64,000 bases of DNA from Candidatus Pacearchaeota archaeon (lineage in GTDB: Archaea > Nanobdellota > Nanobdellia > Pacearchaeales > GW2011-AR1). Shown one piece after another: positions 1 through 31,139 of this stretch. The stretch spans positions 1,779 through 65,778 of the forward strand of contig JAGLOA010000003.1 of NCBI GenBank assembly GCA_023139205.1, written 5' to 3'. The translations under genes were made by a program, and so were the position numbers. The notes below the pieces were generated by a model. That model made no database searches. It was not told the DNA's origin and worked only from the letters and a program-made list of their open reading frames with translations. How positions within the stretch are numbered: the stretch's first letter is position 1; each line of letters opens with the position of its first letter.

Positions 1-1
1 C

Positions 2-493
2 ACAACAAATCTTTCTGCAAAAACTTTAGCAAAATTAAAAAAAGAAGATTTACCTGCAAAGTTTTTTGCCTTAGGAAAAGTTCTAAGAAATGAAACAGTA
101 GATTGGAGCCATGGATTTGAATTTTATCAAACAGAAGGAATCGTAGTTGATGAAAATGCAAACTTCAGACATTTACTGGGATACTTAAAACAATTCTATA
201 CTAAAATGGGTTTTGAAAAAATAAGATTTGCTCCAGCATATTTTCCCTACACAGAACCTTCAGTAGAAATTCATGTCTGGCACCCTGAAAAAAAAGTCTG
301 GCTTGAATTAGGCGGGGCAGGGATTTTCCGTCCAGAAATATCAATTCCCTTGTTAGGGAAAAAAGTTCCGATATTAGCTTGGGGGCAGGGATTTGACAGG
401 ATAATTATGGACTATTACAAAATAAAAGATTTAAGAGAACTTTACAAAAATGATTTAACTAAATTAAGAAAAATGAAACACTGGATGAAATGA
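2..493 (+). CDS. pheS: phenylalanine--tRNA ligase alpha subunit, C-terminal part (5' end lies outside the window)
   Basis: Reading frame is open from the window edge. Translation has FRNE..VDWSHGFEFYQTEG and GAGIFRPE, the class II aaRS motif 2/3 region of archaeal PheS. Stop at 493. Confidence 0.8.
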   Translation, partial: TTNLSAKTLAKLKKEDLPAKFFALGKVLRNETVDWSHGFEFYQTEGIVVDENANFRHLLGYLKQFYTKMGFEKIRFAPAYFPYTEPSVEIHVWHPEKKVWLELGGAGIFRPEISIPLLGKKVPILAWGQGFDRIIMDYYKIKDLRELYKNDLTKLRKMKHWMK

Positions 494-508
494 AAAATAA
501 AATAAATA

Positions 509-565
509 TGCGATTTTCGTCGGAGGCAATTAAAAAAATCGCCCTTCCGTGTCGAGTGGAAAATA
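509..565. repeat. GC-rich stem-loop element A, copy 1, in the pheS-pheT spacer just upstream of the pheT SD
   Basis: GCGATTTT(510-517) pairs with AAAATCGC(535-542); loop is cgtcggaggcaa. About 80% identical to 7174-7235. Confidence 0.5.
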
Positions 566-590
566 GAAAAAAACCTGGAGGTTGTTTTCA

Positions 591-2237
591 ATGGCAAACA
601 TAAACTTGAACAAAAAACAATTTGAAAAAGAAATAGGAAAATTAAATGAAAAAATGCAAAATAAAATTGCAATGTTTGGGTCTCCTTTAGAAAGTTTTGA
701 CAATGAAAAAATTGAATTAGAAATTTTCCCAGACAGACCAGACTTACTTTCCTATCAGGGATTCAAAAGATCTTTTTTAGCATTCTTAGAAAAAAAACCA
801 GGATTAAAAGAATACAAACTAAATAAACCAAAAAAAGATTACAAAGTAATAATCGACTCTTCTGTAAAAAAAATCCGTCCTTACACTGTTTGTGCAATTG
901 TAAAAAATTTGAAATTTGATGATGAAAAAATAATTGAAATAATTGAAATGCAGGAAAAACTCCACACTACAATTGGACGAAAAAGAAAAAAAGCAGCAAT
1001 TGGAATTTACCCTCTTGAAAAAATAAAACTTCCCATAACTTACAAAGCAATTGAACCAGATAAAATTAAATTTATACCTCTTGAATCAGAAAGAGAAATG
1101 TCAGGACTTCAAATTTTACAAAGACATTCAACCGGAAGAGAATATGCTCATTTACTAGCAGGAAAAGAAAAATTCCCAATATTCTCAGATGCGAATAAAA
1201 ATATCCTAAGTATGCCTCCAATAATAAATTCCCAATTAACAGGAAAAGTAAATGAAAAAACAAAAGATGTTTTTGTAGAATGTTCTGGTTTTGATTTAAA
1301 GGTATTAGAAAAATGCCTGAATATAATTGTAACAAGTCTGGCAGACATGGGAGGAGAAATTTATCAAATGGAATTAAAAGATTCAAAGAAAAAAATAACT
1401 CCTGACTTAACACCAGAAAAAACAAAAATATCTTTAGAAAACACCAACAAATTACTGGGATTAAACCTAACCCTAAAAGAATTACAAAAATTACTAGAAA
1501 AAATGGGACATAATTGCAATAAAAATAATGTAAAAATAGCTCCTTGGAGAACAGATATTTTACATGAAGTTGATTTAATTGAGGATGTCGCAATTGCCTA
1601 TGGTTATGACAAATTTGAACCAGAAATCCCAAAAATAGCAACTATTGGAAAAGAAGATAAAAAAGAATCAATCAAAAGAAAAATCTCAGAAATACTTGCT
1701 GGACTTAAAATGTTAGAAATATCAAACTATCATTTAACAACTAACCAAGACCAATTTACAAAAATGGGAATACCAAAAAAACAAGAAAAAGATTTCATAG
1801 AACTAGAAGAATCTAAAACCAATTATTCAATACTAAGAAAAGACCTGACTCATTATTTAATGAAAATTCTTTCTGGAAACATAGATTCAGAATATCCTCA
1901 ACAAATTTTTGAAACAGGGAAAGTTTTTCAGTTAAATAAAGAGAAAATAAATGAAAAACAAAATCTTGCAGTAGCACTTGCTCCGGGAAATTTTACAGAA
2001 GTAAAACAAATTCTTAAATATTTTTTTAAAATGATTAATTTAGAAATAAAATTAAAAGAACCTGAAAAACCAAGTCCTTGGTTTATTGAAGGAAGAACAG
2101 CAGAAATTATTTTCAAAGATAAGACTTTAGGATTTATAGGAGAAATTCATCCAAGAATATTAAAAAATTGGAGAATAAAAATGCCAGTTGCACTTTTTGA
2201 AATAGAATTAGAAGAAATCTTTAGAGAATTAATTTAA
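591..2237 (+). CDS. pheT: phenylalanine--tRNA ligase beta subunit (archaeal type)
   Basis: 550-aa ORF directly downstream of pheS with B3/4- and B5-like regions. GGAGG at 576-580 sits 10 nt before ATG 591; the track's TTG at 582 is less likely. Confidence 0.8.
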   Translation: MANINLNKKQFEKEIGKLNEKMQNKIAMFGSPLESFDNEKIELEIFPDRPDLLSYQGFKRSFLAFLEKKPGLKEYKLNKPKKDYKVIIDSSVKKIRPYTVCAIVKNLKFDDEKIIEIIEMQEKLHTTIGRKRKKAAIGIYPLEKIKLPITYKAIEPDKIKFIPLESEREMSGLQILQRHSTGREYAHLLAGKEKFPIFSDANKNILSMPPIINSQLTGKVNEKTKDVFVECSGFDLKVLEKCLNIIVTSLADMGGEIYQMELKDSKKKITPDLTPEKTKISLENTNKLLGLNLTLKELQKLLEKMGHNCNKNNVKIAPWRTDILHEVDLIEDVAIAYGYDKFEPEIPKIATIGKEDKKESIKRKISEILAGLKMLEISNYHLTTNQDQFTKMGIPKKQEKDFIELEESKTNYSILRKDLTHYLMKILSGNIDSEYPQQIFETGKVFQLNKEKINEKQNLAVALAPGNFTEVKQILKYFFKMINLEIKLKEPEKPSPWFIEGRTAEIIFKDKTLGFIGEIHPRILKNWRIKMPVALFEIELEEIFRELI

Positions 2238-2355
2238 AAAATTATTATTTTAATTTAAATCTAAATTATATAATTCTTGTATTTCTTCTTCACTCAAAAC
2301 TCTATTCAAAATAATCCTTCCGAAGAATTTCGCAGAATATTCTACGCAGGTTACT

Positions 2356-2853
2356 TCAACCAAAGTAACCTTTTCCATTTACTTCAGATTTATTATCCCA
2401 ATTCTTTTTTATAACTTCAACAATTTTTAATAAATCTTTTTTAATTTCCTGCCAAACTTTATAAGATTCTTTAATAAAATCTATTTCCTTTTTTTCAGAA
2501 AATTCAATATCTAATTCAATTAAATTAACTTCAATTTTTGCTAATTTTTTATAAGCATCTGTTAATTTATTTTTTTCTTCAATTCCAATTGATTTTACAA
2601 TAGAAAAAACAAACATTGGAGAATTAACCGGATGCAAAAGAGCTTCTACAAACCTAAGATAATTTGAAAACTTATCTGCCATAAATCTTCTTATTTCTCT
2701 GATCAAAAAATCTGTTTCAACATCTGCAAGCTTCTCTATCTGAAAATCCTCATTAAATTTCTCAAAATCAGGTAAATTAAATTTTTCCTTGATTTTCCCA
2801 TAACTTTCTTTTAAATTTTCTAAATCTGATTTTTTCTCCATCATAGATTTCAA
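2356..2853 (-). CDS. hypothetical protein
   Basis: 165-aa ORF directly downstream of tRNA-Thr on the same strand; no recognisable motif. Confidence 0.4.
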   Translation of the reverse strand: MKSMMEKKSDLENLKESYGKIKEKFNLPDFEKFNEDFQIEKLADVETDFLIREIRRFMADKFSNYLRFVEALLHPVNSPMFVFSIVKSIGIEEKNKLTDAYKKLAKIEVNLIELDIEFSEKKEIDFIKESYKVWQEIKKDLLKIVEVIKKNWDNKSEVNGKGYFG

Positions 2854-2879
2854 GAATAAGCTTTTATAAATTTAATGCA

Positions 2880-2954
2880 AGCCACTTCTGAGATTCGAAC
2901 TCAGGACCTCTTCATTACCAATGAAGTGCTCTTCCAAAACTGAGCTAAAGTGGC
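2880..2954 (-). tRNA. tRNA-Thr (anticodon GGT)
   Basis: Reverse complement folds as a cloverleaf. GCCACTT/AAGTGGC is a perfect 7-bp acceptor, D arm is GCTC..GAGC, anticodon stem CTTCA/TGAAG with loop TTGGTAA, T arm CTGAG-TTCGAAT-CTCAG. Confidence 0.85.
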
Positions 2955-2996
2955 ACAACATTAATTAAAAAAGATCCTATAAAAAATTATTTATAA

Positions 2997-3278
2997 TTAC
3001 TTTTTAGCAAATTTAAGAACAATAAATATCAAAAGCACAATTAAAAATGCAAATGAAATAAATCCAAAAACCATAGCCAAAAGTAAAAACAAATTCTTAA
3101 GGAGAACTGCACTTAAAAAATTATACAAAACAAAACACACTACAGAAAATATTGCAAATAAAATCAAATTCCTCACAATAAGTTTAATTTTTTTCTTAGT
3201 TGCACGAACTGGTTTTTTCGAAATTTTTCGAACAACTTTCTTCTTAGAATCTTTTTTCACACTCTTTTTCTTAGCCAT
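2997..3278 (-). CDS. small lysine-rich membrane protein (hypothetical)
   Basis: 93 aa with a K-rich N-terminus followed by two hydrophobic helices. Confidence 0.35.
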   Translation of the reverse strand: MAKKKSVKKDSKKKVVRKISKKPVRATKKKIKLIVRNLILFAIFSVVCFVLYNFLSAVLLKNLFLLLAMVFGFISFAFLIVLLIFIVLKFAKK

Positions 3279-3313
3279 TTTATAATATATAATAAAGCAT
3301 ATAGTTTTTAAAT

Positions 3314-3616
3314 TTATCCTGAAGTAACATTTCCTTTCCAGTTCATCTTAATAGCATTCACAGTTATTGATTTTAAATTATTAAAAAAAGAACCGAACCA
3401 AACAAAATAAAGACTAGATGCCTCCTTTAATCCATCAATAGTTCTAAAATTAACTTCTTTTCCTTCAAAAACATAACCAGAAGTTACATAAAGAAATAAT
3501 ATCATAGCAATTAACAAAATAGCAAAAATTTTATGTTTCATCCTCTTTAATTCAACAATAACCCAAATAGCTATAACCAAAGAAGCTACAAGGAGTATCG
3601 CAACACCGATTTCCAT
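3314..3616 (-). CDS. small membrane protein (hypothetical)
   Basis: 100 aa with hydrophobic helices. Confidence 0.35.
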   Translation of the reverse strand: MEIGVAILLVASLVIAIWVIVELKRMKHKIFAILLIAMILFLYVTSGYVFEGKEVNFRTIDGLKEASSLYFVWFGSFFNNLKSITVNAIKMNWKGNVTSG

Positions 3617-3656
3617 AACAATTAAAATAAAAACAAGTATAAAAATATTTCTAATA

Positions 3657-3781
3657 GCCCCACCAGAATTCTCAAAGAAGTTCTCGCCTGTCTTTCAGGT
3701 TCTCGCACCCTTTTTTATGATGTGCTCTTTTTGGATATCGGGGCCTTGGAGGTCATCCCTTGGGAAACCTTGGTTCGAAAA
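3657..3781. repeat. GC-rich mosaic repeat element B, copy 1, abutting the 3' end of tRNA-Gln
   Basis: Modules it shares with the copies at 26930-27037 and 53059-53178: cagaattc, gaagttctcgc(acc), ggggcct(t/c)g(g/a)ag, ggaggtcatccc(t/g)tggga. Confidence 0.5.
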
Positions 3782-3854
3782 TAGCCCTACCAGGATTCGA
3801 ACCTGGGTCACAAGGTTCAGAACCTTGCATACTTGACCACTATACTATGGGGCT
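3782..3854 (-). tRNA. tRNA-Gln (anticodon CTG)
   Basis: Reverse complement is AGCCCCA..TAGGGCT with one C/A acceptor mismatch. Anticodon stem CAAGG/CCTTG with loop TTCTGAA; T arm CCAGG-TTCGAAT-CCTGG. Starts with AGCCCC like archaeal tRNA-Gln. Confidence 0.7.
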
Positions 3855-3975
3855 TGATATTTTTACAAATTAAAACTATTAAAAACTTCCGAATCAATAA
3901 ATTTAAAGAATACTTCTTCTTTAAAAATAAATAGAAGAAAAAGAGATAGGGAAAGTCTCTACTTATTTCAGACAG

Positions 3976-4182
3976 GTGAATGTAGCTGCCATAAAACTTT
4001 CAGATAATTTGAAAGTAGGCGACAAAATACAAATCAAAGGGCATACAACTAAATTAGAACAAGAAGTAAAAAAGATCCAAATAGATAGAAAAGAGGGTAC
4101 AGAAGCAAAAAAAGGTGACCATACAGGAATAAAGGTTTCTGAAAAAGTTCGACCAAATGACAAAGTTTTTCTAGTAGAATAA
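3976..4182 (+). CDS. small beta-barrel protein, possibly EF-Tu domain-2-like (hypothetical)
   Basis: 68-aa ORF starting at GTG; G/K/V-rich strand-like pattern. Confidence 0.3.
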   Translation: MNVAAIKLSDNLKVGDKIQIKGHTTKLEQEVKKIQIDRKEGTEAKKGDHTGIKVSEKVRPNDKVFLVE

Positions 4183-4218
4183 AATTTATAAAAGAATTTC
4201 AACTTATTTTTCTTAAAT

Positions 4219-4379
4219 GCCCCTGTAGTCTAGAGGCCAAGGATGCCACCCTCTCAAATCAGATTAAGAGAAAGAGGTGATTTAGTCTCGGTGAGAGAAA
4301 AAGTCTATGCATCTCAATGCAGCCTTTTCTCTGTATTTGGAGAACGGTGGTGACCCGAGTTCAAATCTCGGCAGGGGCG
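4219..4379 (+). tRNA. intron-containing tRNA, most likely tRNA-Glu (anticodon CTC), with an approximately 88-nt intron after position 37
   Basis: Perfect acceptor GCCCCTG/CAGGGGC and T arm CCGAG-TTCAAAT-CTCGG. Anticodon stem CCACC(4246-4250) pairs with GGTGG(4346-4350) only after removing about 4257-4344; anticodon loop is CTCTCAA. Confidence 0.7.
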
Positions 4380-4576
4380 TTTTACAGATGCATTCGTTAT
4401 TCATACATAAAACAAGAATGTATCTGTCCGATATTCGGACAAATTAGTTTAAACAAAAAAAGGAAGCTTCTAAAAGAAACCATTGGTGTCTTTTAAGTTC
4501 AAATTTTGGAAGGGGCGTTCAACTATAATTTTAAAAAGAGTTTGAGATTTATATTAAAAAAGAGGAATTTTTCAAA

Positions 4577-5134
4577 ATGTCTTGGTTTGAAGTTGAAACA
4601 AAAGTCAAAATAAAAAACATAAAAGATCTAAAAAGAAAAGTAAAAAAAATTGCTAATCTAAAAAAGAAAGAGATAAAAAAAGATAATTATTTTTCTTTAA
4701 CAAAAAAAGAATATCCAATAAAAGCATTTAGAATAAGAACTAACGGAAAAGAACATGTGGTTAATTTCAAAAAATGGGTTAAAAAAGATTGGGACAAAAA
4801 CATTGTTGTTAAAGAAGAATTTGAATTCCAGGTAAAAAATCCAGAAATTTTTTTAGCTTTAATGAAAGACTTAGGTTTTGAACAATGGATTAATAAAACA
4901 AAAAATTCTGAAATTTATTCACACAAAAAATATAAAAAATTAACAATTGAATTAAACAATGTAAAAAAATTAGGAGATTTTATGGAAATAGAATATCTTG
5001 CTAAAAAAAATGAAATAAATAAAGCTAAAAAAATAATAAGAAAAACCTTAAAACAATTAGAAATAAATCCTTCTCAAATAAATAATACTGGCTACACAAA
5101 AATGCTTTGGAAAATAAAAAATGAAAAAAAATAA
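4577..5134 (+). CDS. CYTH-domain protein (class IV adenylate cyclase / triphosphatase-like)
   Basis: N-terminal EVE.K pattern and conserved acidic/basic positions of the CYTH fold; overlaps ackA by 14 nt. Confidence 0.5.
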   Translation: MSWFEVETKVKIKNIKDLKRKVKKIANLKKKEIKKDNYFSLTKKEYPIKAFRIRTNGKEHVVNFKKWVKKDWDKNIVVKEEFEFQVKNPEIFLALMKDLGFEQWINKTKNSEIYSHKKYKKLTIELNNVKKLGDFMEIEYLAKKNEINKAKKIIRKTLKQLEINPSQINNTGYTKMLWKIKNEKK

Positions 5135-6197
5135 GAAAATACTTGTATTTAATGTGGGAAGTTCCAGCATAAAATATAGTTTATTTCATAATCTGAAAAG
5201 AATAAGTTCTGGGAACAAAGAAAGATTAAAAACAAAACACGATTATCAAAAAGCAGTAAAAGAAATACTTGAAAAATTCAAACAAGAAAAAATAAATTTA
5301 ATTGCCCACAGAGTAGTTCATGGAGGGGATTTAAATAAGCCCTCCAAAATAAACAGAGAAATAAAAAATAAAATAAAAGAATTTTCTGAATTTGCACCAT
5401 TGCATAATCCAAAACAATTAATGGTCATAGAATTAATTGACGCCGAAGGTGATCCCTCTGGGAAGAAAAATTCCAAAATTCCTCAATACGCTCTTTTTGA
5501 TACAATGTTTTTCTCAGACCTTCCAGAAGTTTCAAAAACTTACGCAATTCCAAAAGCACTTACAAAAAAATTAAACATAAGAAGATATGGCTTTCATGGA
5601 TTTTCTCATCATTATGTTTCAAAATCATTAAAAGGGAAAACAATCACTTGCCACCTTGGTTCTGGATCAAGTATTTCTGCAATAATTAATGGAAAACCAA
5701 TAGACACAAGCATGGGACTAACTCCTTTAGAAGGTTTAATCATGGGAACTCGCTCAGGAAACATAGATCCTGGATTAATTCTTTATTTAGAGAAAAAAGG
5801 ATATAACACAAATGAGATATTAAATAAAAAATCAGGACTAAAAGGAATTTGCGGACACAATGACTTTAGAGATATATTACAAAAAATGAATAAAGATAAA
5901 AATTGTAAACTTGCTTATAACATGTTCATTTATAGAATAGTAAAAATAATTGGTTCATACATTACAGCAATGAATGGTCTAAACAATCTTGTTTTCACAG
6001 CAGCAATAGGGGAAAATGTTCCAAGATTAAGAAAAGACATTTGTAAACAATTAAGCTTCATGAAATTAAAATTAAACAAAAAGAAAAATCAAAAAAACAA
6101 AGAAATAATTTCTTCAATAAACTCAAAAGTAAAAGTTTTTGTTAAAAAAACTAATGAAGAACAAATGATTGTTGAGGAGGTTTTAAAATGCCTTTAA
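5121..6197 (+). CDS. ackA: acetate kinase
   Basis: Motifs VFNVGSSSIKY, HRVVHGG, APLHNP, RRYGFHGFSH, CHLGSGSSI, DTSMG, GTRSGNIDPG, FTAAIGEN. Confidence 0.85.
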   Translation: MKKNKKILVFNVGSSSIKYSLFHNLKRISSGNKERLKTKHDYQKAVKEILEKFKQEKINLIAHRVVHGGDLNKPSKINREIKNKIKEFSEFAPLHNPKQLMVIELIDAEGDPSGKKNSKIPQYALFDTMFFSDLPEVSKTYAIPKALTKKLNIRRYGFHGFSHHYVSKSLKGKTITCHLGSGSSISAIINGKPIDTSMGLTPLEGLIMGTRSGNIDPGLILYLEKKGYNTNEILNKKSGLKGICGHNDFRDILQKMNKDKNCKLAYNMFIYRIVKIIGSYITAMNGLNNLVFTAAIGENVPRLRKDICKQLSFMKLKLNKKKNQKNKEIISSINSKVKVFVKKTNEEQMIVEEVLKCL

Positions 6198-6763
6198 AAA
6201 TTCCAGTTGAAATATCTGCAAGACACATCCATCTTTCAGAAAGAGATTTTGAAAAATTATTTGGAAAAAACAAAAAACTAACACCAATAAAAAAAATCTC
6301 TCAACCAATGCAATTTGCATCAAAAGAAGTTGTTGAGTTAGTTAACAAGAAAAATAAAATCGAAAATGTAAGAATTCTGGGTCCATTTAGAAAAAAATCT
6401 CAAATTGAAATTTCATTAACAGATGCTTATCATTTAAAATTAAAACCCTTGCCAAAAATAAAATTATCCGGAGATCTAACAGGAACTTGTAAAGTCTTAG
6501 TTAAAGGTCCAAAAACAAATATTAAAATTCCTTGCATAATTGCAAAAAGGCATTTACATGCTTCAGAGGAAGAAGCAAAAAAACTCAAAGTAAAAAACAA
6601 TCAAAAAATTTCCATAAAAGTAAAAAGTGAAAGAGAAATAACTTTTCATAACATAATTACAAGAATTTCAAACAAATACAAACTTGCATTGCATTTTGAC
6701 ACAGATGAAGGAAATGCTGCAGGAATAACAGAAAAAACTTTTGGGGAAATAAAAAAGTATTAA
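6188..6763 (+). CDS. pduL: PduL-type phosphate acetyl/propanoyl-transferase
   Basis: Two PduL repeats, each with an (S/K)xRH(I/L)H(L/A)S motif. GAGGAGG SD at 6174-6180. Overlaps ackA by 10 nt. Confidence 0.7.
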   Translation: MPLKIPVEISARHIHLSERDFEKLFGKNKKLTPIKKISQPMQFASKEVVELVNKKNKIENVRILGPFRKKSQIEISLTDAYHLKLKPLPKIKLSGDLTGTCKVLVKGPKTNIKIPCIIAKRHLHASEEEAKKLKVKNNQKISIKVKSEREITFHNIITRISNKYKLALHFDTDEGNAAGITEKTFGEIKKY

Positions 6764-6795
6764 AAACTCTAAAACCCAGATAGTGGAGTATAAAA

Positions 6796-7077
6796 ATGGA
6801 AAAACCAAAACCCTTAACAAAAAGACAAAAAATAATTGTAAAAACAAAAGCTTCTGCAAAAAAATTAAAAAGAGAAATAAAAAAATCAATAAGTACTGCA
6901 ATTGTTGCTGCATTTGGTTTTTTAATTGCTTTGTCTTGGAGAGATGTAATAAAAGAATACGTTAATAAAATTTCCTCTCTAAGCCCTATTCAGGGGAATC
7001 TAATTAGTGCTGTAATAATAACGATTATTTCTGTAATTGGAATTTTAATTATTACCAAATTTTTATCAGGAGAATGA
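6796..7077 (+). CDS. small membrane protein (hypothetical)
   Basis: 93 aa with a basic N-terminus and two TM helices. Confidence 0.4.
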   Translation: MEKPKPLTKRQKIIVKTKASAKKLKREIKKSISTAIVAAFGFLIALSWRDVIKEYVNKISSLSPIQGNLISAVIITIISVIGILIITKFLSGE

Positions 7078-7817
7078 ACCATAAGAATATTTTTCAGATA
7101 ATGAAAATACTTTCAAAAAAATATATTTTTACTGAAAAAACAACTTTAAATCGCATGCGAAAAAAACACAGCAATGCGACTTTCATCGGAGGCAAAGAAA
7201 AAAAGTCGCCCTTAAGTGCTTCGAGGAAGGAGCGCGAGGAAAATCAAGGGGTTTCCTCGCACGCTTTTAAAATATTGATTTCTTGCTTATTATCATTAAG
7301 AGCAAGAGATGAAAACACAAAAAAGGTTTCAAAAAAATTATTCACAATAGCAGACACCCCAAAAAAGATTTCAGCAATTCCTCTAAAAAAATTAGAAAAA
7401 ATAATCTACAGCTCAGGGCATTATAAGAAAAAAGCAAAAACTCTCAAACACGTTTCAAGTGAACTTATCAAAAAATTCAATTCAAAAGTTCCTGACACAA
7501 AAGAAGAATTACTGAGCATAAAAGGGATTGGACCAAAAACAGCAAACATTGTTTTAGCGTTTGCTTTTAATAAATTAGTTCTGCCAATTGATACTCATTG
7601 TCATAGAATCCCCAACAGACTTGGCTGGGTAAAAACAAAAACAGCTGAAAAAACAGAAAAACAATTAGAAAAAATTCTTGAAAAGAGATATTGGTCAAAC
7701 TTCAATGCAATCTTTGTTCAGTTTGGAAGAGAAATCTGCCAACCAATATCTCCGTGGTGTTCTAAATGTCCCCTTAAAAAATATTGCCCAAAAATTGGAG
7801 TTATTAAAAGAAGATAA
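7074..7817 (+). CDS. nth: endonuclease III (HhH-GPD DNA glycosylase/lyase with a 4Fe-4S loop); true start is probably internal
   Basis: ILISCLLSLRARDENT helix, HhH SIKGIGPKTANIVL, catalytic D in PIDTHCHR, and C-x6-C-x2-C-x5-C at the C-terminus. The N-terminal 60 aa include GC-rich element A copy 2. Confidence 0.8.
   Translation: MNHKNIFQIMKILSKKYIFTEKTTLNRMRKKHSNATFIGGKEKKSPLSASRKEREENQGVSSHAFKILISCLLSLRARDENTKKVSKKLFTIADTPKKISAIPLKKLEKIIYSSGHYKKKAKTLKHVSSELIKKFNSKVPDTKEELLSIKGIGPKTANIVLAFAFNKLVLPIDTHCHRIPNRLGWVKTKTAEKTEKQLEKILEKRYWSNFNAIFVQFGREICQPISPWCSKCPLKKYCPKIGVIKRR
7174..7266. repeat. GC-rich element A, copy 2, with an extra second hairpin, inside the 5' region of the nth ORF
   Basis: GCGACTTT(7176-7183) pairs with AAAGTCGC(7202-7209), compensatory relative to copy 1. 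A second stem GCGAGGAAA/TTTCCTCGC lies at 7234-7260. Confidence 0.5.
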
Positions 7818-7852
7818 CAAACTTTAAAAACCAATTTCTCTAAAATTTAATT

Positions 7853-7969
7853 ATGAAACGGTCATCAAGAAGATGGAAGAAAAAAGGTCAAATGCGTTGG
7901 AAATGGCAGCGTAAAAGACTTAGAAAAGAAAAGCATAAAAGAAAGCTAAGAAAAGCTAGAAGCAAATAA
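7853..7969 (+). CDS. rpl41e: 50S ribosomal protein L41e (absent from the ORF track because it is too short)
   Basis: 38 codons translating to MKRSSRRWKKKGQMRWKWQRKRLRKEKHKRKLRKARSK, the extremely basic RWKKK..MRWKW signature of L41e. Confidence 0.7.
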   Translation: MKRSSRRWKKKGQMRWKWQRKRLRKEKHKRKLRKARSK

Positions 7970-8028
7970 TTCTAAATATATTCCCGCATCAGCATAATCT
8001 TTATTAACCAATTTTCAATAAAATAAAT

Positions 8029-8988
8029 ATGGTGAGCGGAATTTGGACTGAAAAATACAGACCATCTCAATTCTTAGAGATCGTTGGTCAGGATGATATT
8101 ATCAAAAGAGTAAAAGCCCTGACAAACTCTCTAAACATACCTCATTTGCTCTTTGCAGGACCAGCAGGAACAGGAAAATCAACCCTTGCCTTAGTAGTTG
8201 TAAAAGAACTTTTCAAAGAAACCTGGAAAGAAAACTACCTTGAATTAAATGCTTCTGATGAAAGAGGAATTAATGTAGTAAGAGAAAAAGTAAAAAGTTT
8301 TGCAAGGACAAAATCATTAGGAAATGTCCCATTTAAAGTGATTTTTCTGGATGAAGCAGACGCTTTAACACCTGAAGCTCAACAAGCATTAAGAAGAACA
8401 ATGGAAAATTATGCTGCAACATGTAGATTTATTCTTTCCTGCAATTATTCAAGCAAAATAATTGATCCAATTCAATCAAGATGTGCGATTTTTAGATTTA
8501 AACTTCTTGAAAAAATAGATATTGAAAAAATAATCAAAAGAATATCAGAAACTGAAAACCTAACAATCTCACCAGAAGCAGCAGAAATTCTATATGAAGG
8601 AAGTGAAGGAGATTGCAGAAAATGTATTAACATCTTACAATCAACAGCTTCAATTTCTCCTTCAATTACTGAAGATCTTGTTTCAACAATGATCTCCAAC
8701 ACAAGACCAAAAGATATCAAAATTGTATTAGACTATGCATTATCTGGAGATTTTCAGAAATCAAGAGAAAAACTTTTAGATATGATGCTTAGAGAAAGCA
8801 TCTCAGGGCAAGATGTAATTAAAGCAATTCAAAAAGAAGTTTGGAACCTTCCAATTGAACCAGAAATCAAAGTCAAATTAACAGAAAAAACAGGTGAAAC
8901 AGAATTCAGAATAGTTGAAGGCTCTGACCCATTTGTTCAACTACAATCTCTTCTAGCAAGTTTTGTCTTGGCAGGATTAGGAAAATGA
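8029..8988 (+). CDS. rfcS: replication factor C small subunit
   Basis: WTEKYRP start, Walker A GPAGTGKS, Walker B DEAD, SRC motif (QSRCAIF). Confidence 0.9.
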   Translation: MVSGIWTEKYRPSQFLEIVGQDDIIKRVKALTNSLNIPHLLFAGPAGTGKSTLALVVVKELFKETWKENYLELNASDERGINVVREKVKSFARTKSLGNVPFKVIFLDEADALTPEAQQALRRTMENYAATCRFILSCNYSSKIIDPIQSRCAIFRFKLLEKIDIEKIIKRISETENLTISPEAAEILYEGSEGDCRKCINILQSTASISPSITEDLVSTMISNTRPKDIKIVLDYALSGDFQKSREKLLDMMLRESISGQDVIKAIQKEVWNLPIEPEIKVKLTEKTGETEFRIVEGSDPFVQLQSLLASFVLAGLGK

Positions 8989-9054
8989 TGTTAAAAAGTG
9001 CCAAGATTCTTGTGCCCCGAAGGGGTATATTGGCTGGATTAGGGAAGGTGTAAA

Positions 9055-9453
9055 ATGCCCTATACAACCAAAAAAAAATTTGAAGAAAATTATAAAAATT
9101 GTAAAAATTATTTAAAAGAATTAGAATCCATAAAACCAAAGCCTAAAGAAGAATATCCAAATATACCGGATTTTGGATCTTGTTTAAAAGATATTGAAGA
9201 AATGACGTGTAAAATACATATAGATGATAGAAACAATATGATTGAACACCAAAATAAATATCTAAAAAAAGAAATAAAGTGGTGTAAAAAAAATTTAGAA
9301 GATTTAACAAAATCAAAAAAAGAATCTATTTTTGGATTAATCAACTATAAAAAAATACATACTTTAGATTGGGGGAAATTAGATATGAAAGATTTTAGAA
9401 CATATCTTAATGGGAGGGTAAGAATGTATAGTCCTAATCCTATTGAACATTAA
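9055..9453 (+). CDS. hypothetical protein inserted between rfcS and rfcL
   Basis: 132-aa ORF with no motif. Preceded by a degenerate copy of the rfcS 3' end (9030-9047) and a CCCCGAAGGGG hairpin (9015-9025). Confidence 0.4.
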   Translation: MPYTTKKKFEENYKNCKNYLKELESIKPKPKEEYPNIPDFGSCLKDIEEMTCKIHIDDRNNMIEHQNKYLKKEIKWCKKNLEDLTKSKKESIFGLINYKKIHTLDWGKLDMKDFRTYLNGRVRMYSPNPIEH

Positions 9454-9456
9454 AAA

Positions 9457-10737
9457 ATGGATAATGAAAATTTTTCTTATATAACATCAGTAAGAGGCAA
9501 TGAAGAGATGCCAACCTTTAACACCCCAAAGAATGGAGTGTACGAGAGAAATCAAGGGGTTTCCTCGCCTTGGACTGAAAAATACAGACCTAAAAAATTT
9601 GAAGACCTCAAAGGTCAAAATGAAGCAATAAATAAAATAAAAAACTTTATAGAAAACTTTTCTTCTTCTAAGAAAAAAGCATTAATTCTTCATGGTCCTC
9701 CTGGAACAGGGAAAACTACAATAACACATATAATTGCAGAAGAAACAAATTCAGAAATATTTGAATTAAATGCTTCTGACTTAAGAAATAAAAATAAATT
9801 AAAAGAAATTTTAAAACCTGCAATTGAACAAAGATCTTTAATCAAACAAAAAAAAATAATCTTAATAGATGAAGTAGATGGAATCTCAACAGTAGACAGA
9901 GGGGGATTAACAGAACTTGTATCTTTAATAAAATTAAGTTCTTATCCATTAATAATGACTGCAAATGATGCATGGAACAAAAAATTAAGTCCCTTAAGAA
10001 AAACTTCAGAATTAATACAATTAAAAGAAATTGATTATCACACAACCAAAGAAATTCTATTCAGCATCTTAAGAAAAGAAGGGCTTTTCATCGACAATAA
10101 CATAATAACAAACCTCTCAATAAAAGTAAAAGGAGATATAAGAGCTGCAATAAATGATTTACAAACAATCTCCCATACAAAAGATCACTCTTCATTAAAT
10201 CTCGACGAAAGAAACAAGGAAATTGATATTTTCCACGCACTAAGAATGATCTTCAAAGGAAAAGCAACACAAGAAATACTAAAAGTTTTTGATTCAGTAA
10301 ATATGCCAATAGACAAGAAACTTTTATGGATAGAAGAAAATATTCCTTTAGAATATCAGGGAGAAGAATTAGCAAATGCCTGTGAAAGATTAAGCAGAGC
10401 AGATATTTTTAAAGGAAGAATATACAAACAACAATATTGGAGATTTTTAGTTTATGAAAATATACTTTTAAGCTATGGAGTTTCTGCTGCGAAAAAAAGT
10501 GTTAAAACAGGGTTTACAAGTTACAAAAAACCAACAAGAATTTTAAAAATCTGGATGAACAATCAAAAAATAGCTAAAAGAAAAACAATTGCAAAAAAAT
10601 ATTCAAGATATGTCCACATTGGAGAAAAACGTGCATTGCAGGAATTTTTTATAATCAAACAAATCATAAAATCAAATCCAACAATTTCAAAAGAGTTGAA
10701 ACTTAACGAAGAAGAAGTTGAATATTTAGCAAAGTGA
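9457..10737 (+). CDS. rfcL: replication factor C large subunit; start may be ATG 9508
   Basis: WTEKYRPKKF, Walker A GPPGTGKT, Walker B DEVD. The N-terminal extension carries a fragment of repeat element A (9549-9568). Confidence 0.85.
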   Translation: MDNENFSYITSVRGNEEMPTFNTPKNGVYERNQGVSSPWTEKYRPKKFEDLKGQNEAINKIKNFIENFSSSKKKALILHGPPGTGKTTITHIIAEETNSEIFELNASDLRNKNKLKEILKPAIEQRSLIKQKKIILIDEVDGISTVDRGGLTELVSLIKLSSYPLIMTANDAWNKKLSPLRKTSELIQLKEIDYHTTKEILFSILRKEGLFIDNNIITNLSIKVKGDIRAAINDLQTISHTKDHSSLNLDERNKEIDIFHALRMIFKGKATQEILKVFDSVNMPIDKKLLWIEENIPLEYQGEELANACERLSRADIFKGRIYKQQYWRFLVYENILLSYGVSAAKKSVKTGFTSYKKPTRILKIWMNNQKIAKRKTIAKKYSRYVHIGEKRALQEFFIIKQIIKSNPTISKELKLNEEEVEYLAK

Positions 10738-10794
10738 ATTAGACGCAAGAGGATATAGATTATATAAATATTTAAAAAAGAAAAAGAGTAAATT

Positions 10795-11028
10795 ATGGAC
10801 ATGGTAAATTTAGGCGCTAAACAAATTGCTCAAAAAGCAGCAGAATATTTGCAAGAATTAAAGAATGTCTCTGATATTTCTTTGGAGGAAATAGAATTGG
10901 TAGGAGAGGGATATTGGTTGGTCACCTTGAGCTATACTTCTTATAACATATTAGATTCAAAAGAACATTGGAAAGTTTTCAAGATAGATGCTTCTACAGG
11001 GGAAGTTCTCTCTATGAAATCCAAATAA
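10795..11028 (+). CDS. small hypothetical protein, possible antitoxin-like partner
   Basis: 77 aa; its stop lies 1 nt before the next ORF. Confidence 0.3.
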   Translation: MDMVNLGAKQIAQKAAEYLQELKNVSDISLEEIELVGEGYWLVTLSYTSYNILDSKEHWKVFKIDASTGEVLSMKSK

Positions 11029-11029
11029 A

Positions 11030-11566
11030 ATGGGAAAACCATTTACTCTAGATAAACGAATAATTCAAAGATATGCATCAAAAGGTTTAATTTTAGATAC
11101 AAAATTGTTTATCCTTTTTTTAGCTGGAATTTATAATCCCAACTCAATAGGAAAGAATAAACTAACAAAAGAATTTAGCATAGAGGATTGGGAATTAATA
11201 CAAATATTTCTTAAAGCTTCAAATAATAAAATCTTGGTGACTCCCCACATACTCACAGAAAGTTCAAATTTTCTAGAAAGAGATTTAAAAGGAGAATTCC
11301 AAATTTGGTTCAAAAAAATCTCAAAAGAACTAATGAAAATGAAAGAATTTTTGATTGAAAAAAATAAAATATTATCTATCCCAGAAACTCAAAGATTTGG
11401 GATAACAGATATAGGAACAATAATCACCCGTAAAATTTGTGGGGGGCTTATAATAACTAGTGATTCAAACCTAGTGAGAGAATATTCAAAAAAAGGGGTG
11501 CCCATACTAAATTTTAATCATTTAAGAAATATTTACTGGGCAAAGAAAAAAGGGATTTTATCTTAA
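11030..11566 (+). CDS. hypothetical protein, possibly a PIN-like nuclease
   Basis: LILDTKLFILFLAG and TPHILTES resemble the PIN D..T/E pattern; this is weak. Confidence 0.3.
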   Translation: MGKPFTLDKRIIQRYASKGLILDTKLFILFLAGIYNPNSIGKNKLTKEFSIEDWELIQIFLKASNNKILVTPHILTESSNFLERDLKGEFQIWFKKISKELMKMKEFLIEKNKILSIPETQRFGITDIGTIITRKICGGLIITSDSNLVREYSKKGVPILNFNHLRNIYWAKKKGILS

Positions 11567-11705
11567 CTAACACTAAGCTCCAGTATCAGAACCTATTCAT
11601 CCCCATCCAAATCCAGGAGAAGGAGAATCACTTGACAAGCTGTAAACATTAACTCTCTCTTCTTTTTTCATTTTTACCAAACCTAAATCAATAAAAATAA
11701 AAAAC

Positions 11706-12530
11706 TTAATTCAATTCGTCTAAAATTTTTGACAAATCTTCTAATGGTCTATAACCACTTACAAAATACCTACCATTAATCACATTTGCAGGAGTTCCTG
11801 TTGCACCATACTTTTCTGCAACATCTCTGTTCGCACTTAAATCAAGTGCATAGATAGTTATCTCTGGATATTTTTCTTGTGCTTCAACCAAAACCGGATG
11901 GTATTTAGTGCACCATCCACAGCCAGCACCATAAAACGAAATCAAAGTTTTAGGAATTAAATCATAATTTGCAAATTCATTAATTCTCATAGAAGCATCA
12001 TATTCTTCTGATTCTTCAACATCAAAAGATAATATTTTTGATTTAATATCTTCAGGCAATTCATTTTCAAAAACACTCCAATCAACAGATTCTGGTCGTT
12101 GAGTCTGTTGGTCTGATTGAGAAGAATCTTCTTCATTAATTGCTGCTAAAGGAATTAAACTTGAAGTGAAATATTCTCCATCCATTGTAACATAAACTGG
12201 AAAATCTTGTCCTTGAATTGAAAGAGTAACTTTATAAAAACCATTTTCTTCGACCACATTAATTAATTCTGCATTAGCTCCTTGTGCATTTGCAAAATCA
12301 AGAACAGCCTCTCCAGCAACATCTTCTGAAATAACAGAACCAGTTATACCTGAAAAACTTCCAATTACAAAAATAAACGTTATAACTCCTAAAACAATTG
12401 TTGAAAGAATCCACGGATTTTCCCTTAATTTTTTAGTAACAGTATCTTTTTTATCAACAACTTTTTCATTAACACCTTCTGAAATATTTTCATTTTCACT
12501 TTCCATTAAATAAAAATATGAAAAAGTCAT
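11706..12530 (-). CDS. membrane-anchored thioredoxin-fold thiol-disulfide oxidoreductase
   Basis: N-terminal TM helix, CGWC active-site motif, C-terminal GTPANVING thioredoxin fold. Confidence 0.55.
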   Translation of the reverse strand: MTFSYFYLMESENENISEGVNEKVVDKKDTVTKKLRENPWILSTIVLGVITFIFVIGSFSGITGSVISEDVAGEAVLDFANAQGANAELINVVEENGFYKVTLSIQGQDFPVYVTMDGEYFTSSLIPLAAINEEDSSQSDQQTQRPESVDWSVFENELPEDIKSKILSFDVEESEEYDASMRINEFANYDLIPKTLISFYGAGCGWCTKYHPVLVEAQEKYPEITIYALDLSANRDVAEKYGATGTPANVINGRYFVSGYRPLEDLSKILDELN

Positions 12531-24328: not shown

Positions 24329-26512
24329 CTACTTTCCCTTCTTAACAACTTTCTTCTCAACTTTCTCTTTCTTAATTTCAGGCTCAATTATCTTCCCACT
24401 ACTTTCCAAAGTTTCTTTTAATGCTTTATCAAAATCTTCTTTTGTTATTACCATTTTTAACTTATCTGATTTTTTAGTCTTGTAATATTTTTTAATTGCA
24501 TTTATTCCTGCTTTTCTGCATAAAGATTCTATATCTGCTCCTGTCCAGGAATCTGTTTTATCAACATAATCTAAAATATTCAAAGATTTATCAAGAGGCA
24601 TTGTTCTTGTATGAACCTTAAAAATTTCTTCTCTTGTTTTTTTATCAGGGATTCCAAGTTCAACTATCTCATCAATTCTTCCTGGCCTCAATAAAGCAGG
24701 GTCAATTAAATCTGGTCTGTTTGTCGCAGCAATAACAACAACCTTCTCTAATTCCTCAATTCCATCTAATTCAGTTAATAATTGATTAACAACTTTTTCA
24801 GTAGAATCTGACAAAGAACTTCCACGGGATTTTGAAATAGAATCAAATTCATCAAAAAAGATTATTGAAGGAGCAACCTGCACAGCTTTCTTAAATATCT
24901 CCCTGACATGTTTTTCAGATTCTCCAACCCATTTTGAAATTAATTCAGGACCTTTTACTGAAATAAAATTTGCATTTGCTTCTGTTGCAACAGCCTTGGC
25001 TAAAAGAGTTTTCCCTGTTCCAGGAGCACCAGTTAACAAAACACCCTTAGAAGGTTTGATTCCTGCCTTGACATATAAATCAGGTCTAATCAAAGGTAAC
25101 TCCACCAACTCCCTTAACTTATCCTTAGCTTTTTCCAATCCCCCAACATCACTCCATCTTACATGAGGTTTATTTATCAAAACTTCCCTCATTGCAGAAG
25201 GCTCCACAGTTCTCCCGGCATCAATAAAATTCTCCCTTGAAACTTTTATCTTATCCAAAATCTCAGTTGGAATTTTTTCCTGCATATTTTTAAGTTCTGA
25301 AAAATAAGGCTTTATTGATTTAAGAGCAGCCTCCTTGCATAAAATATCTATATCTGCTCCAGTATACCCAATTGTTCTTCTGGCAATCTCATCAAAATTC
25401 ACATCTTTAGCCAGAGGCATACCTCTTGTATGAATCCTCAAAATCTCTTTCCTCCCTTCCTCACTAGGAGGATTAATTTTTAATTCCCTATCAAATCTTC
25501 CAGGTCTTCTCAAAGCCTCATCAATATCATCAGGTCTGTTTGTTGCAGCCATTACAACCAACTGCCCACGAGATTTCAAACCATCCATTAAAGTCAATAA
25601 TTGAGCAACAATCCTCTTCTCTGTCTGATCTATCCCCTCTCCTCTCTTCGGAGCAATGGAATCAATTTCATCAATAAAAATTATAGAAGGGACGTTTTTT
25701 TCTGCTTTCTCAAATATTTCCCTGATATGTTTTTCACTCTCTCCATAAAACTTAGACATTATTTCTGGTCCTGCTATTGAAAAAAATGCAGCATCTGTTT
25801 CAGTTGCAACAGCCTTAGCTAAAAGAGTTTTCCCTGTTCCAGGAGGACCTGTTAATAAAACTCCTTTTGGAGCCCCAACACCAAGCTTCTGAAATACTTC
25901 TGGATGCTTCATTGGAAGCTCAACCATTTCTCTGATAGACTCTATCTCATTTTTCAATCCTCCAATATCCTCATAAGAAATACCAGTTGAACGCAAATCA
26001 CCTGAATAAACTTCATCAGAAACAATAATTTTTGTTGAAGGAGAAACAACCACATTTCCTTTTGGATTTAGTTTAGAAATAACATAACTCAATTTTGTTC
26101 CAAATACATCAATAACAATAACCTGATTTAAAACAAGAGGTCTGTCTAATAATTTTAAATGAAAATATTCAACAGGGTCGTTGCTGAACCTTACCCCTTC
26201 CTGCAACGGAGAAAGAGTTATTGATTTGGCTTCCTGAAAATCTGTTTTAAAAATCTCTATTTGCTCGCCTATTGAAGCATTTATATTTGAACGCGTAACC
26301 CCATCCAGCCTTATAATTTCTTTTGCTTCATTTTTCTTTAAAGCCCTCATAACCTTAACAACTCCTAAAACTTTTCCTTTAATCGCTATTAAATCCCCAG
26401 AAACCAAATTAAGAGAATCCATAACTTCAGAAGAAATCCTGGCAACACCTTGATCTATATCTTCCTGCATTGATTCTGCAACTTCTAAATTTATTATTTG
26501 TTTTTTAGTCAT
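24329..26512 (-). CDS. cdc48: CDC48/VCP-like AAA+ ATPase (paralog 1)
   Basis: CDC48 N domain followed by two AAA modules with Walker A GPPGTGKT / GAPGTGKT. Confidence 0.9.
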
Positions 26513-26892
26513 TTTCTTTTTTCAAAATAAATCTCCAAAACTCCATTTTTAAAAGTATGATTAACTTTTTTATGATTTACAAAACTAGGAAGTATCTTTT
26601 TAAAATATTCCCCTCTGCTTAATTTCCTTGCAAGATATTCCTGAATATTTTCAAGATTATTTTTCTTGGCAGTTATTTCTATTTCTTTTTTTGTAATATC
26701 AACCTTTATATCTTTTTCAGAATAACCAGGCAATTCAAAAACCAAAAACAATTTATCTTTGGTTTCTATAAAATCAATTATTCTTTCATCATCTTCTCCT
26801 TTAATAATATTCTCCGAGCTATGTAAATTTGATCTTTGACCAAAAAAGTCTCTTACAATATTTTCAAAAGGGTCTTCATCAAAAAAACTCAT
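26509..26892 (-). CDS. hsp20: small heat-shock protein, Hsp20/alpha-crystallin family
   Basis: Alpha-crystallin-like FLVFELPGYSEKDIKVDI region; overlaps cdc48 by 4 nt. Confidence 0.75.
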   Translation of the reverse strand: MSFFDEDPFENIVRDFFGQRSNLHSSENIIKGEDDERIIDFIETKDKLFLVFELPGYSEKDIKVDITKKEIEITAKKNNLENIQEYLARKLSRGEYFKKILPSFVNHKKVNHTFKNGVLEIYFEKRK

Positions 26893-26929
26893 TTTATGCC
26901 CCTAGTAAAAATCTTTTCAGAAGATTTTC

Positions 26930-27037
26930 TCTCAGACCTACTTGGTTCGGGGCCTCGAAGAGGTCTTGTCCCTCCTTGGGATACTCGCACCTTCTTGGTG
27001 TACGCACGAAGTGTGTCCCTTATACACCCAAGGGTGT
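26930..27037. repeat. GC-rich mosaic repeat element B, copy 2, in the hsp20 5' leader/promoter region
   Basis: Shares ttcggggcctcgaagagg, tcgcacct(c/t)cttggtgtac and cccttggg modules with copies 1 and 3. Internal pairs CCCTTGGG/CCCAAGGG and ACACCC/GGGTGT. Confidence 0.5.
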
Positions 27038-27066
27038 AAAAATTTAATTTATTAATTTTTATCATT

Positions 27067-30861: not shown

Positions 30862-30994
30862 TTAATTCTTAGCAGACAACATCTTTTTAAATCAAAAGTT
30901 ATTTACTGAATTACGGCTCCGTAGCTTCCCAAGGAGGGATGATCTGCTTTGCAGACCTCAGCCTTTTAAGTTACTTCGCAGTCGCCCCAAAAAT

Positions 30995-31069
30995 GGCTCC
31001 GTAGCTCAGCTTGGTCAGAGCACCAGACTCTTAATCTGGGTGTCGAGGGTTCAAATCCCTTCGGGGCCA
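30995..31069 (+). tRNA. tRNA-Lys (anticodon CTT)
   Basis: Acceptor GGCTCCG/CGGGGCC, anticodon stem CCAGA/TCTGG with loop CTCTTAA, T arm GAGGG-TTCAAAT-CCCTT, discriminator A. Confidence 0.85.
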
Positions 31070-31139
31070 TTTCTAATTTTGGTAAAATGGTAAGAAAATT
31101 ATTAGTAAAGTTTAAAGGGATTAAATTATTCTATTATTT

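Follow-up and report, generated by a model that had tools for sequence, protein, structure and literature searches.

The stretch of DNA analyzed here, which we call the window, comprises 64,000 nucleotides (nt) of contig JAGLOA010000003.1 from a Candidatus Pacearchaeota archaeon and has a G+C content of 29%. It carries a GC-rich element with two hairpins, designated family A, at three places: in the spacer between pheS and pheT, inside the endonuclease III gene nth, and at the start of rfcL. Model R1, a covariance model derived from an alignment (A3) of 33 independent copies, found exactly these three in the 64 kb, all full length and on the plus strand, with no further sense-strand match at an E value below 0.001. 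The model thus identifies the three sites as copies of one element, as an earlier reading made from the letters alone (the sequence-only reading) had proposed. Perfect 8-bp hairpins with at least four G/C pairs and a loop of 10 to 22 nt occur four times in the window, two of them in the nth copy. Rfam 15 gave no match to family A at the gathering score in the window, nor at E values up to 5 in positions 1 to 12000; tRNAs were the only matches. The window also matches the 94-kb scaffold ZHAN22-2 of a Pacearchaeota-type DPANN assembly (GCA_030637545.1). Coordinates are collected in Table 1.

The pristine copy inside nth folds with a minimum free energy (MFE) of -30.3 kcal/mol (z = -2.3). It accounts for 31 residues located between the peptides TTLNRMRKK and AFKILIS, both of which are conserved across orthologs. 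Most endonuclease III orthologs, which are 215 to 218 amino acids (aa) long, have TTLNRMRKKP-NAFKILIS uninterrupted. At exactly that point, 25 to 36 additional residues are present in the window protein and in a minority of its relatives. The closest relatives of the window nth (81 to 82% identity) do not carry the element. The junction between host and insert is encoded in the endonuclease III reading frame (e.g., NRMRKKHSNATFIGGK), and the nth product would carry the insert in translated form. Structure prediction was run for this one host, and the AlphaFold2 model shows a predicted local distance difference test score below 50 at residues 31 to 60, the only long low-confidence segment, with confident helices on both sides. 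The insert is accordingly predicted to be a disordered, structurally permissive region. In two other loci, the nth genes (L062 10001-10741 and L064 2996-3724) contain an unrelated, AT-richer insert with two hairpins (MFE of -25 to -30 kcal/mol) at the same place, so the nth site is evidently a permissive hot spot. That insert is either a third element family or a case of extreme divergence with the structure retained.

The copy at the rfcL start has lost most of stem 1 and has two mismatches in hairpin 2, while its 3' 20 nt are those of the nth copy. Indeed, positions 7241-7260 and 9549-9568 hold one and the same 20-mer, AAATCAAGGGGTTTCCTCGC, as had been read from the sequence, and dinucleotide shuffles give an expectation of 0 matches. 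In the window rfcL open reading frame (ORF), 38 residues precede the W of the conserved protein start, and an in-frame ATG at 9508-9510 lies within the former 3' arm of stem 1 (GATGCC). Among the rfcL orthologs listed, 118 of 120 start with M(x)(x)W[TV]EKYRP or have only a short extension. Pristine elements occupy the same rfcL site elsewhere, as a leader-type copy in locus L060 and as an in-frame fusion in L006. In the latter (protein P0207), the element is fused ahead of WTEKYRP and is partly read in a different frame from the one used in nth, which argues that selection acts on the nucleotides and not on the peptide. The window rfcL copy would be a decaying element that has turned into an N-terminal extension. 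The sequence-only reading had assigned such an extension to both proteins; this holds for rfcL, but in nth the insertion is internal. The refuting check named in that reading turned out in favor of insertion, the additional residues being simply absent from nearly all of 24 aligned insert-free nth orthologs, as from the 118 rfcL orthologs.

The third copy lies between the pheS stop codon (491-493) and the pheT ATG (591-593), ending one base before that ATG. It had been thought to extend from 509 to 565. However, R1 matches 507-593 (46.2 bits, E value of 1.7e-10), and the copy is full length, with a second hairpin. This AT-rich hairpin was placed from the MFE fold, the covariance model alignment, and the Shine-Dalgarno (SD) usage of operon-internal genes in the window. 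The pheT SD sequence GGAGG (577-581) is found in and beside its loop, 9 nt 5' of the ATG. The first stem and the second hairpin of the nth copy are present as originally described, and the T-to-C change between the two copies is matched by A to G on the opposite arm. The reported identity of about 80% between 509-565 and 7174-7235 did not hold overall, the value being 71% (44/62), but about 86% is reached over hairpin 1 plus CCCTT. An upstream ORF (uORF) runs across the whole copy. Its ATG overlaps the pheS stop TGA (491-493) in an ATGA arrangement, a second in-frame ATG follows at 508-510, and its TAA begins 10 nt beyond the A of the pheT start codon, the relative frame being xxA/TGN. The order pheS, uORF, and pheT would then form a translationally coupled chain. 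Members of the same subfamily, with almost identical 3' halves, are also located 5' of rpS10 (L059) and rpL24e (L023) in other genomes.

Table 1. Positions of family A and family B features in the 64-kb window
Feature	Position	Strand	Description
Family A copy 1, "pheT-type" subfamily	494-590	+	A/T-rich 5' extension 494-509, hairpin 1, linker, hairpin 2
Copy 1 hairpin 1	510-542	+	GCGATTTT 510-517 / AAAATCGC 535-542, loop CGTCGGAGGCAATTAAA
Copy 1 hairpin 2, AT-rich	566-589	+	GAAAA 566-570 / UUUUC 585-589; inner AACC 572-575 / GGUU 580-583
uORF across copy 1	490-603	+	ATG 490-492, stop TAA 601-603
Family A copy 2, pristine	7173-7263	+	Inside nth ORF 7074-7817; R1 match 106.8 bits
Copy 2 hairpin 1	7176-7183 / 7202-7209	+	GCGACTTT / AAAGTCGC
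Copy 2 linker	7210-7233	+	
Copy 2 hairpin 2	7234-7242 / 7252-7260	+	GCGAGGAAA / TTTCCTCGC
In-frame insertion in endonuclease III	7167-7262	+	About residues 32-62, HSNATFIGGKEKKSPLSASRKEREENQGVSS; absent from most orthologs (ortholog alignment A2)
Family A copy 3, degenerate, full length	9478-9571	+	5' end of rfcL (ORF 9457-10737); R1 match 43.5 bits
Family B element	53060-53189	-	In frame inside class I aminoacyl-tRNA synthetase (ORF 52477-54924, KMSKS present), translated ..GWDGSHRFPRDDLPKREASVYTKEVRELLRSPKTLNSGA..
Family B leader copy	26889-27070	-	59-codon uORF 27065-26889 through GC-rich element

Outside the window, 17 loci were recovered when one genome per species was scanned with exact patterns. 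Each belongs to a metagenome-assembled genome (MAG) of a DPANN archaeon (Woese-, Pace-, and Nanoarchaeota), and several genomes have more than one locus. A scan of metagenomes added 35 loci, again all DPANN, and R1 located further divergent copies in the flanks of the loci that had been fetched. In total, more than 50 copies are known beyond the window, all from DPANN archaeal MAGs or metagenomes, and together they show the strong covariation for which the sequence-only reading had suggested looking. The core of the element is about 85 nt long; a 13-nt A/T-rich 5' extension brings it to about 100 nt, and an optional extra hairpin to at most about 115 nt. Hairpin 1 consists of 8 bp with a conserved loop, UCGGAGGCAA or UCGGAUUGCAC, and is followed by a purine-rich linker, CCUUCAGNGCUUCGAGGAAGGAGC. 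Hairpin 2 consists of 9 bp, and its loop contains the SD-like motif AAGGGGU, or GGAGGU in the pheT-type subfamily. Because most copies have the A/T-rich tract conserved on their 5' side (consensus approximately AAATTAAATAT), we consider it part of the element.

Stem 1 exists in many paired versions, including GCGACTTT/AAAGTCGC, GTGGCATC/GATGCCAC, GCGATATC/GATATCGC, GCAGTATC/GATACTGC, and GTGACTTC/GAAGTCAC. In alignment A3, two-sided changes are seen in 6 of the 8 stem 1 pairs and 3 of the 9 stem 2 pairs, and 97% of the stem cells are paired, versus 44 to 61% when the partners are slid. With 52 model-aligned copies, an alignment that is fitted to the model, two-sided changes extend to 15 of 17 stem pairs. 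The covariation of stem 1 is unbiased, because stem 1 was in neither search pattern. The suggestion that the helices are under selection is thereby upheld; the reason why the stems are maintained is one that we infer. A pseudoknot is possible between the CCUU that follows stem 1 and the AAGG of loop 2 (alignment positions 38-41 and 74-77). These segments and the local linker helix that competes with them (38-42/54-58) are both 97 to 100% paired and hardly vary. We did not rely on the element being more conserved than its flanks, since this is true of the pattern-found copies but not of L008 and L009, which were found via protein homology.

About 18 copies lie within genes, in frame, in 10 unrelated families: Trm5/TYW2, UMP kinase, ERCC4, PCMT, a small methyltransferase, DUF167, LigD_N, nth, rfcL, and GatB. 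Every one of them is in the sense orientation and is open in the frame of its host. All keep that frame, for which the chance expectation is approximately (1/3)^10. By inspection, the consensus is free of stop codons in all three sense frames and has stops in two of the three antisense frames. All three sense frames are used among the hosts, each giving a peptide rich in K, R, E, S, and G, and one copy is read in two frames after 1-nt indels. In three Rossmann-fold methyltransferases, the insert is just ahead of the FD.I strand. A census of translated copies in protein space was hampered by queries too short to be useful: a concatenated three-frame peptide query gave 1 match, and the 35-residue insert gave 3 matches against 1.8 billion representatives, two of which are small tandem-element ORFs. 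Two public small ORFs, P0242 and P0243 (72 and 95 aa), each consist of two tandem element-derived peptides, and tandem arrays therefore exist elsewhere.

These internal copies bear on two other explanations. In the window, nth and rfcL both encode the hexapeptide NQGVSS, which had been highlighted for this reason, as would be expected of an independently functional peptide motif (..ENQGVSS..) that is spread by recombination. We find such a protein-level module scarcely credible, given that the element is read in three frames across different hosts and in two within one copy, occurs in untranslated and antisense contexts as well, encodes an insert predicted by AlphaFold2 to be disordered in nth, and is conserved in its base pairing and not in its codons. 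It is also very improbable that the element is an intron-like sequence cut from mRNA, by the tRNA splicing endonuclease at a bulge-helix-bulge (BHB) motif or by self-cleavage, such that the insert is never translated. A GC-rich, structured sequence in a 29% G+C genome, present patchily at the same position in orthologs and related to sequence in tRNA introns, does resemble an intron. However, an intron needs neither to keep the frame nor to be free of stops, and all internal copies over the 10 host families do both. Strict hBHBh' motifs are absent from the borders of 13 of 14 internal copies, and relaxed BHB motifs are about 1.8-fold more frequent than in shuffles and share no position, in a scan of only moderate sensitivity on the one control intron. 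No Rfam ribozyme family matched.

The larger group of copies, about 35, sits in gene leaders, with hairpin 2 ending 0 to 1 nt before the ATG of a gene that has a normal N terminus. The hosts include EF-1beta, SRP54, an RNase J-like protein, RPA, rpS3Ae, rpS10, rpL24e, PheS, PheT, EndA, a KH protein, SPP, and RfcL. Loop 2 is located about 9 nt 5' of the ATG, the position at which operon-internal genes of the window have GGAGG. A uORF ATG is found 10 to 40 nt 5' of stem 1, and a TATA-like box lies 28 to 29 nt before it, a spacing that ordinary leaderless genes of the window also have. Where the copy lies in an operon, the uORF begins instead at an ATG overlapping the stop codon of the upstream gene. 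A uORF spans the element in 20 of 28 leader copies and is in the xxA/TGN frame relative to the main ATG in 17 of those 20. The uORFs in this frame stop 1 to 13 nt (once 31 nt) past the main ATG, with five exact ATGA overlaps. The proposal that the element inserts at gene 5' ends was right as to insertion and to a 5' preference, about two-thirds of all copies being 0 to 1 nt before a start codon.

Wherever the context is an mRNA, the element was seen in the sense orientation only. The only two antisense copies, at L035 5026-5107 and L033 7528-7609 (32 to 38 bits), make up most of tRNA introns of about 98 nt. The L035 host is tRNA-Lys (CUU), and ARAGORN misses the intron-bearing tRNAs of both loci. 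In tRNA introns translation sets no constraint, so the confinement of antisense copies to them fits with a survival of sense copies only in mRNA. These copies suggest that interspersed repeats and tRNA introns may be connected. One could go further and propose that the element derives from a tRNA intron and is (retro-)mobile: the antisense RNA form, with two hairpins and a U-rich tail, would be cut out of pre-tRNA and from time to time be copied into DNA again, giving target duplications of variable length, and only sense, translatable insertions would survive in genes. Besides the two introns themselves, this origin is consistent with target duplications of varied length (9, 37, and 48 nt), an A/T-rich tract at one end only, and GC-rich, family B-like segments that adjoin tRNA genes of the window. 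We nevertheless hold it to be improbable, as no reverse transcriptase was found near any copy, the intron copies number just two and both score low, an intron would tolerate any DNA transposon that landed in it, and the present data do not allow the direction of descent to be inferred.

A further context is a 3' untranslated region. In L018 (6130-6330), an aCPSF1-like beta-CASP gene has a pristine copy directly behind its stop codon, and the copy is itself followed by a second, GC-richer version of the last 16 codons of that gene, in frame with the element, as a diverged 48-nt duplication. The arrangement suggests that the element had inserted internally and that duplication of the gene tail repaired the damage. 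Locus L050 (1130-1310, minus strand) is a fresh insertion. There, the element has entered an ATGA junction between pheS and a Nudix gene, and a perfect 37-nt duplication, AAATCAACTAAGGAAACTTAAATGGCTAATAAAATGA, flanks the 13-nt A/T-rich tract and the 84-nt core. The resulting uORF of 49 aa ends in the duplicated pheS tail, overlaps the downstream ATG, and has been called as a gene in a public protein collection (P0241). In addition, the copies of a given genome have features in common that are specific to it, for example the extra linker hairpin in SI047_bin24. A range from pristine to decayed copies exists at one and the same site, both for rfcL (L060, L006, the window, and L063) and for nth (the window, L038, L008, L009, and L063).

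Taken together, family A is probably a selfish interspersed repeat of DPANN archaea that is tolerated by translation, mobile now or at some time in the past, and similar in kind to the Rickettsia palindromic elements (RPEs). Such DNA, in very compact and AT-rich genomes, would survive only where it leaves gene expression unbroken. Inside genes, a sense, in-frame element would be translated as a loop insertion of about 30 residues, hydrophilic and disordered in all frames. At gene starts, it would reside directly 5' of the ATG, with a uORF that begins at a leaderless ATG, or at one overlapping an upstream stop, and that crosses the element to stop on or just past the authentic ATG. Ribosomes translating the uORF would unwind the hairpins and then reinitiate, aided by the SD-like loop 2 about 9 nt upstream. 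Archaea are known to use termination-reinitiation at overlapping stop and start codons (Huber et al. 2019, PMC6728339); its operation at element-borne uORFs is something that we infer.

A number of observations weigh against a mobile, selfish element. There are no terminal inverted repeats, the ends being the A/T-rich tract and ..CCTCGC, with a GCGA/TCGC similarity of only 4 to 5 nt in one subfamily. Target duplications are clear in only 2 to 3 copies, and elsewhere just the ATG is shared. A long target duplication was rejected as a general rule, since the N termini of uORFs and main ORFs are no more alike than shuffled ones (p = 0.25) and only L028, L050, and L018 show duplication. In the roughly 485 kb of fetched loci, which do not amount to an exhaustive genome search, neither a transposase nor an integrase nor a reverse transcriptase is linked to the element, and no cognate autonomous element with the same ends was seen. 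An IS200-like Y1 transposase gene (PF01797, E value of 8e-33) does occur at L064 1857-2300 (minus strand), 700 nt from an insert-bearing nth, but tblastn found it in L064 alone among about 60 loci, and it is not flanked by the element; an association with IS200-type transposases was rejected on these grounds. Eight of the 28 leader copies have no uORF spanning the element. The exact abutment to the start codon, at 0 to 1 nt, is unexplained by tolerance filtering alone and points to target specificity or a function. The same host sites recur in distant genomes (nth, Trm5, EF-1beta, pheT, rfcL, GatB, SRP54, and RPA), and the linker and hairpin 2 are almost invariant, both of which could reflect a host function instead. 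Most copies were found via exact patterns in the 3' half, and conservation of that half is thus partly a matter of ascertainment. Separately, viral contigs scanned with a 19-mer from the linker gave 0 matches.

Such a host function would make family A a cis-acting RNA module, for instance a two-hairpin operator bound by an RNA-binding or ribosomal protein, or a device by which initiation at the main ORF would depend on translation of the uORF. Informational genes would form its regulon, and the internal copies would be secondary. Beyond the abutment to start codons, this explanation gains from the strong covariation, from loops and a linker that stay nearly invariant across distant genomes, from the SD-like motif of loop 2, part of which is paired in the MFE fold, from the single relative frame in 17 of 20 uORFs, and from the return of the same genes in several genomes, rpS3Ae as well as EF-1beta, pheT, rfcL, SRP54, GatB, and RPA. 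We consider it unlikely, while granting it some weight. About 18 in-frame copies lie deep within the enzyme domains of unrelated genes, others are antisense in tRNA introns or behind a stop codon, and one insertion is fresh, with its 37-nt duplication. In the window itself, two of the three copies are degenerate or of a diverged subfamily, and the closest relatives of nth do without the element. The hosts have no common function beyond the content typical of a reduced genome. The narrower idea of the sequence-only reading, a structured regulatory RNA restricted to leaders of genes for translation and replication, is not supported by these contexts, and a riboswitch or other leader-specific cis-regulatory RNA was rejected because of the heterogeneous hosts, the many intragenic copies, and the occurrences in tRNA introns and a 3' untranslated region.

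A more far-reaching reading can be put forward, and we regard it as quite unlikely. Far from being passive passengers, the copies would then represent a new class of translation-dependent mobile elements that target start codons and ATGA junctions, possibly having arisen from excised tRNA introns and been copied back with target duplications of variable length. Carrying their own start context, a frame-neutral, stop-free body, and an SD hairpin, they would create uORFs coupled to the host genes and, in the course of time, rewire the initiation of a sizeable share of DPANN informational genes.

Among known systems, the RPEs offer the closest functional comparison. They are inserted in frame in many unrelated genes (PMC10969869). 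Like family A, they are short hairpin-bearing repeats of a reduced, AT-rich genome, with many copies located in frame in unrelated housekeeping genes and no associated transposase known; as family A would be, they are translated as an extra surface peptide (PMC10969869). Judged by its sequences, family A appears to share the features of this class, being multicopy, in frame in unrelated genes that have insert-free orthologs, hairpin forming, and, in one host, placed in a permissive region; this is a likeness of functional class and not of homology. However, family A belongs to another domain of life, so that no relationship in sequence would be expected, is shorter (85 to 100 versus approximately 100 to 150 nt), and uses each of the three reading frames. 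The majority of its copies abut a start codon, with an SD-like loop and a uORF overlapping the main ATG, a niche that has not been described for RPEs.

Other comparisons are more distant. The GC clusters and "byp" elements of yeast mitochondria are mobile GC-rich hairpins in very AT-rich genomes that can sit within coding regions. The byps are skipped by translational bypassing, and the GC clusters are mostly intergenic, whereas family A keeps the frame and appears to be read through, with no take-off and landing codon pairs seen. With the repetitive extragenic palindromes (REPs) and bacterial interspersed mosaic elements that accompany RAYT transposases, and with the IS200/IS605-derived PATE elements, family A has in common two modules, a conservation of hairpin structure rather than sequence, and a lack of terminal inverted repeats. 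However, REPs are extragenic, a Y1 transposase gene is present at just one of some 60 loci and has no flanking copies of the element, and no conserved target tetranucleotide was recognized. Miniature inverted-repeat transposable elements such as Sulfolobus SM and Correia elements are likewise small, nonautonomous, multicopy, and cotranscribed with their neighbors, and they can bring expression signals, here the SD-like motif. Family A differs in having no terminal inverted repeats, apparently in having no target duplication of fixed length, and in being strictly sense and frame neutral.

With respect to termination-reinitiation as it is known from archaea (PMC6728339), the leader copies recreate ATGA-type or closely overlapping junctions, and chains of upstream gene, uORF, and gene occur at 490-603, in L050, and at the family B leader (27065-26889). 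The difference is that the upstream cistron here is an element-borne uORF without a conserved peptide and not a normal gene. Finally, archaeal BHB introns in tRNA, rRNA, and Cbf5 mRNA are also GC-rich structured inserts with fixed positions and a patchy distribution, and two antisense copies are in tRNA introns; the mRNA copies of family A, however, have no conserved BHB motif and are always in frame.

The window contains a second GC-rich family, family B, which shares the lifestyle of family A, with one copy in frame in an aminoacyl-tRNA synthetase gene and another in a leader carrying a uORF. That uORF starts 1 nt past the TAA of the upstream gene, and its TGA overlaps the ATG of the next gene (26892) in an ATGA junction. 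A 9-nt direct repeat, ATAAAATGA, is present on both sides of the insertion. The sequence-only reading had suspected that the two families are related. We rejected a homology in sequence, since R1 matches no family B copy and the two align poorly. The leader copy is situated between a cluster of CDC48-like genes and the next gene; this cluster (24500-28650, minus strand) consists of two tandem AAA+ paralogs with internal repeats of 65 to 84% identity (families D1 to D4).

Several tRNA genes of the window were also noted. One, at 4219-4379 (plus strand), contains an intron of roughly 90 nt; the Rfam tRNA model found it (44.6 bits), and ARAGORN missed it. A GC-rich segment resembling family B (3671-3781) directly adjoins the 3' side of tRNA-Gln (3782-3854, minus strand). 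Another GC-rich segment (30905-30993), 5' of tRNA-Lys (CTT) (30994-31070), begins with a duplicate of the tRNA 5' end, GGCTCCGTAGCT, and the same arrangement with a duplicate precedes the intron-containing tRNA-Lys of L035. This segment could be a conserved leader, a remnant of a tRNA half, or an integration scar.

In our literature searches, we met with no account of elements of this kind from DPANN archaea, and as far as these searches show, family A is the first archaeal counterpart of the in-frame repeats of Rickettsia. Its niche is new as well, that of a repeat living on start codons through a uORF that would be coupled to the gene. There are consequences for annotation: gene callers extend or misplace starts, as in rfcL and GatB; element uORFs are called as genes, as with P0241; and inserts of 30 residues look like lineage-specific protein features, as in nth, Trm5, PCMT, UMP kinase, and the class I aminoacyl-tRNA synthetase. 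Such insertions could mislead phylogenies of DPANN archaea that are based on indels. The element also provides a natural system in which to study how ultracompact genomes tolerate mobile DNA, how leaderless and SD-dependent initiation are combined, and whether sequence is exchanged between tRNA introns and interspersed repeats.

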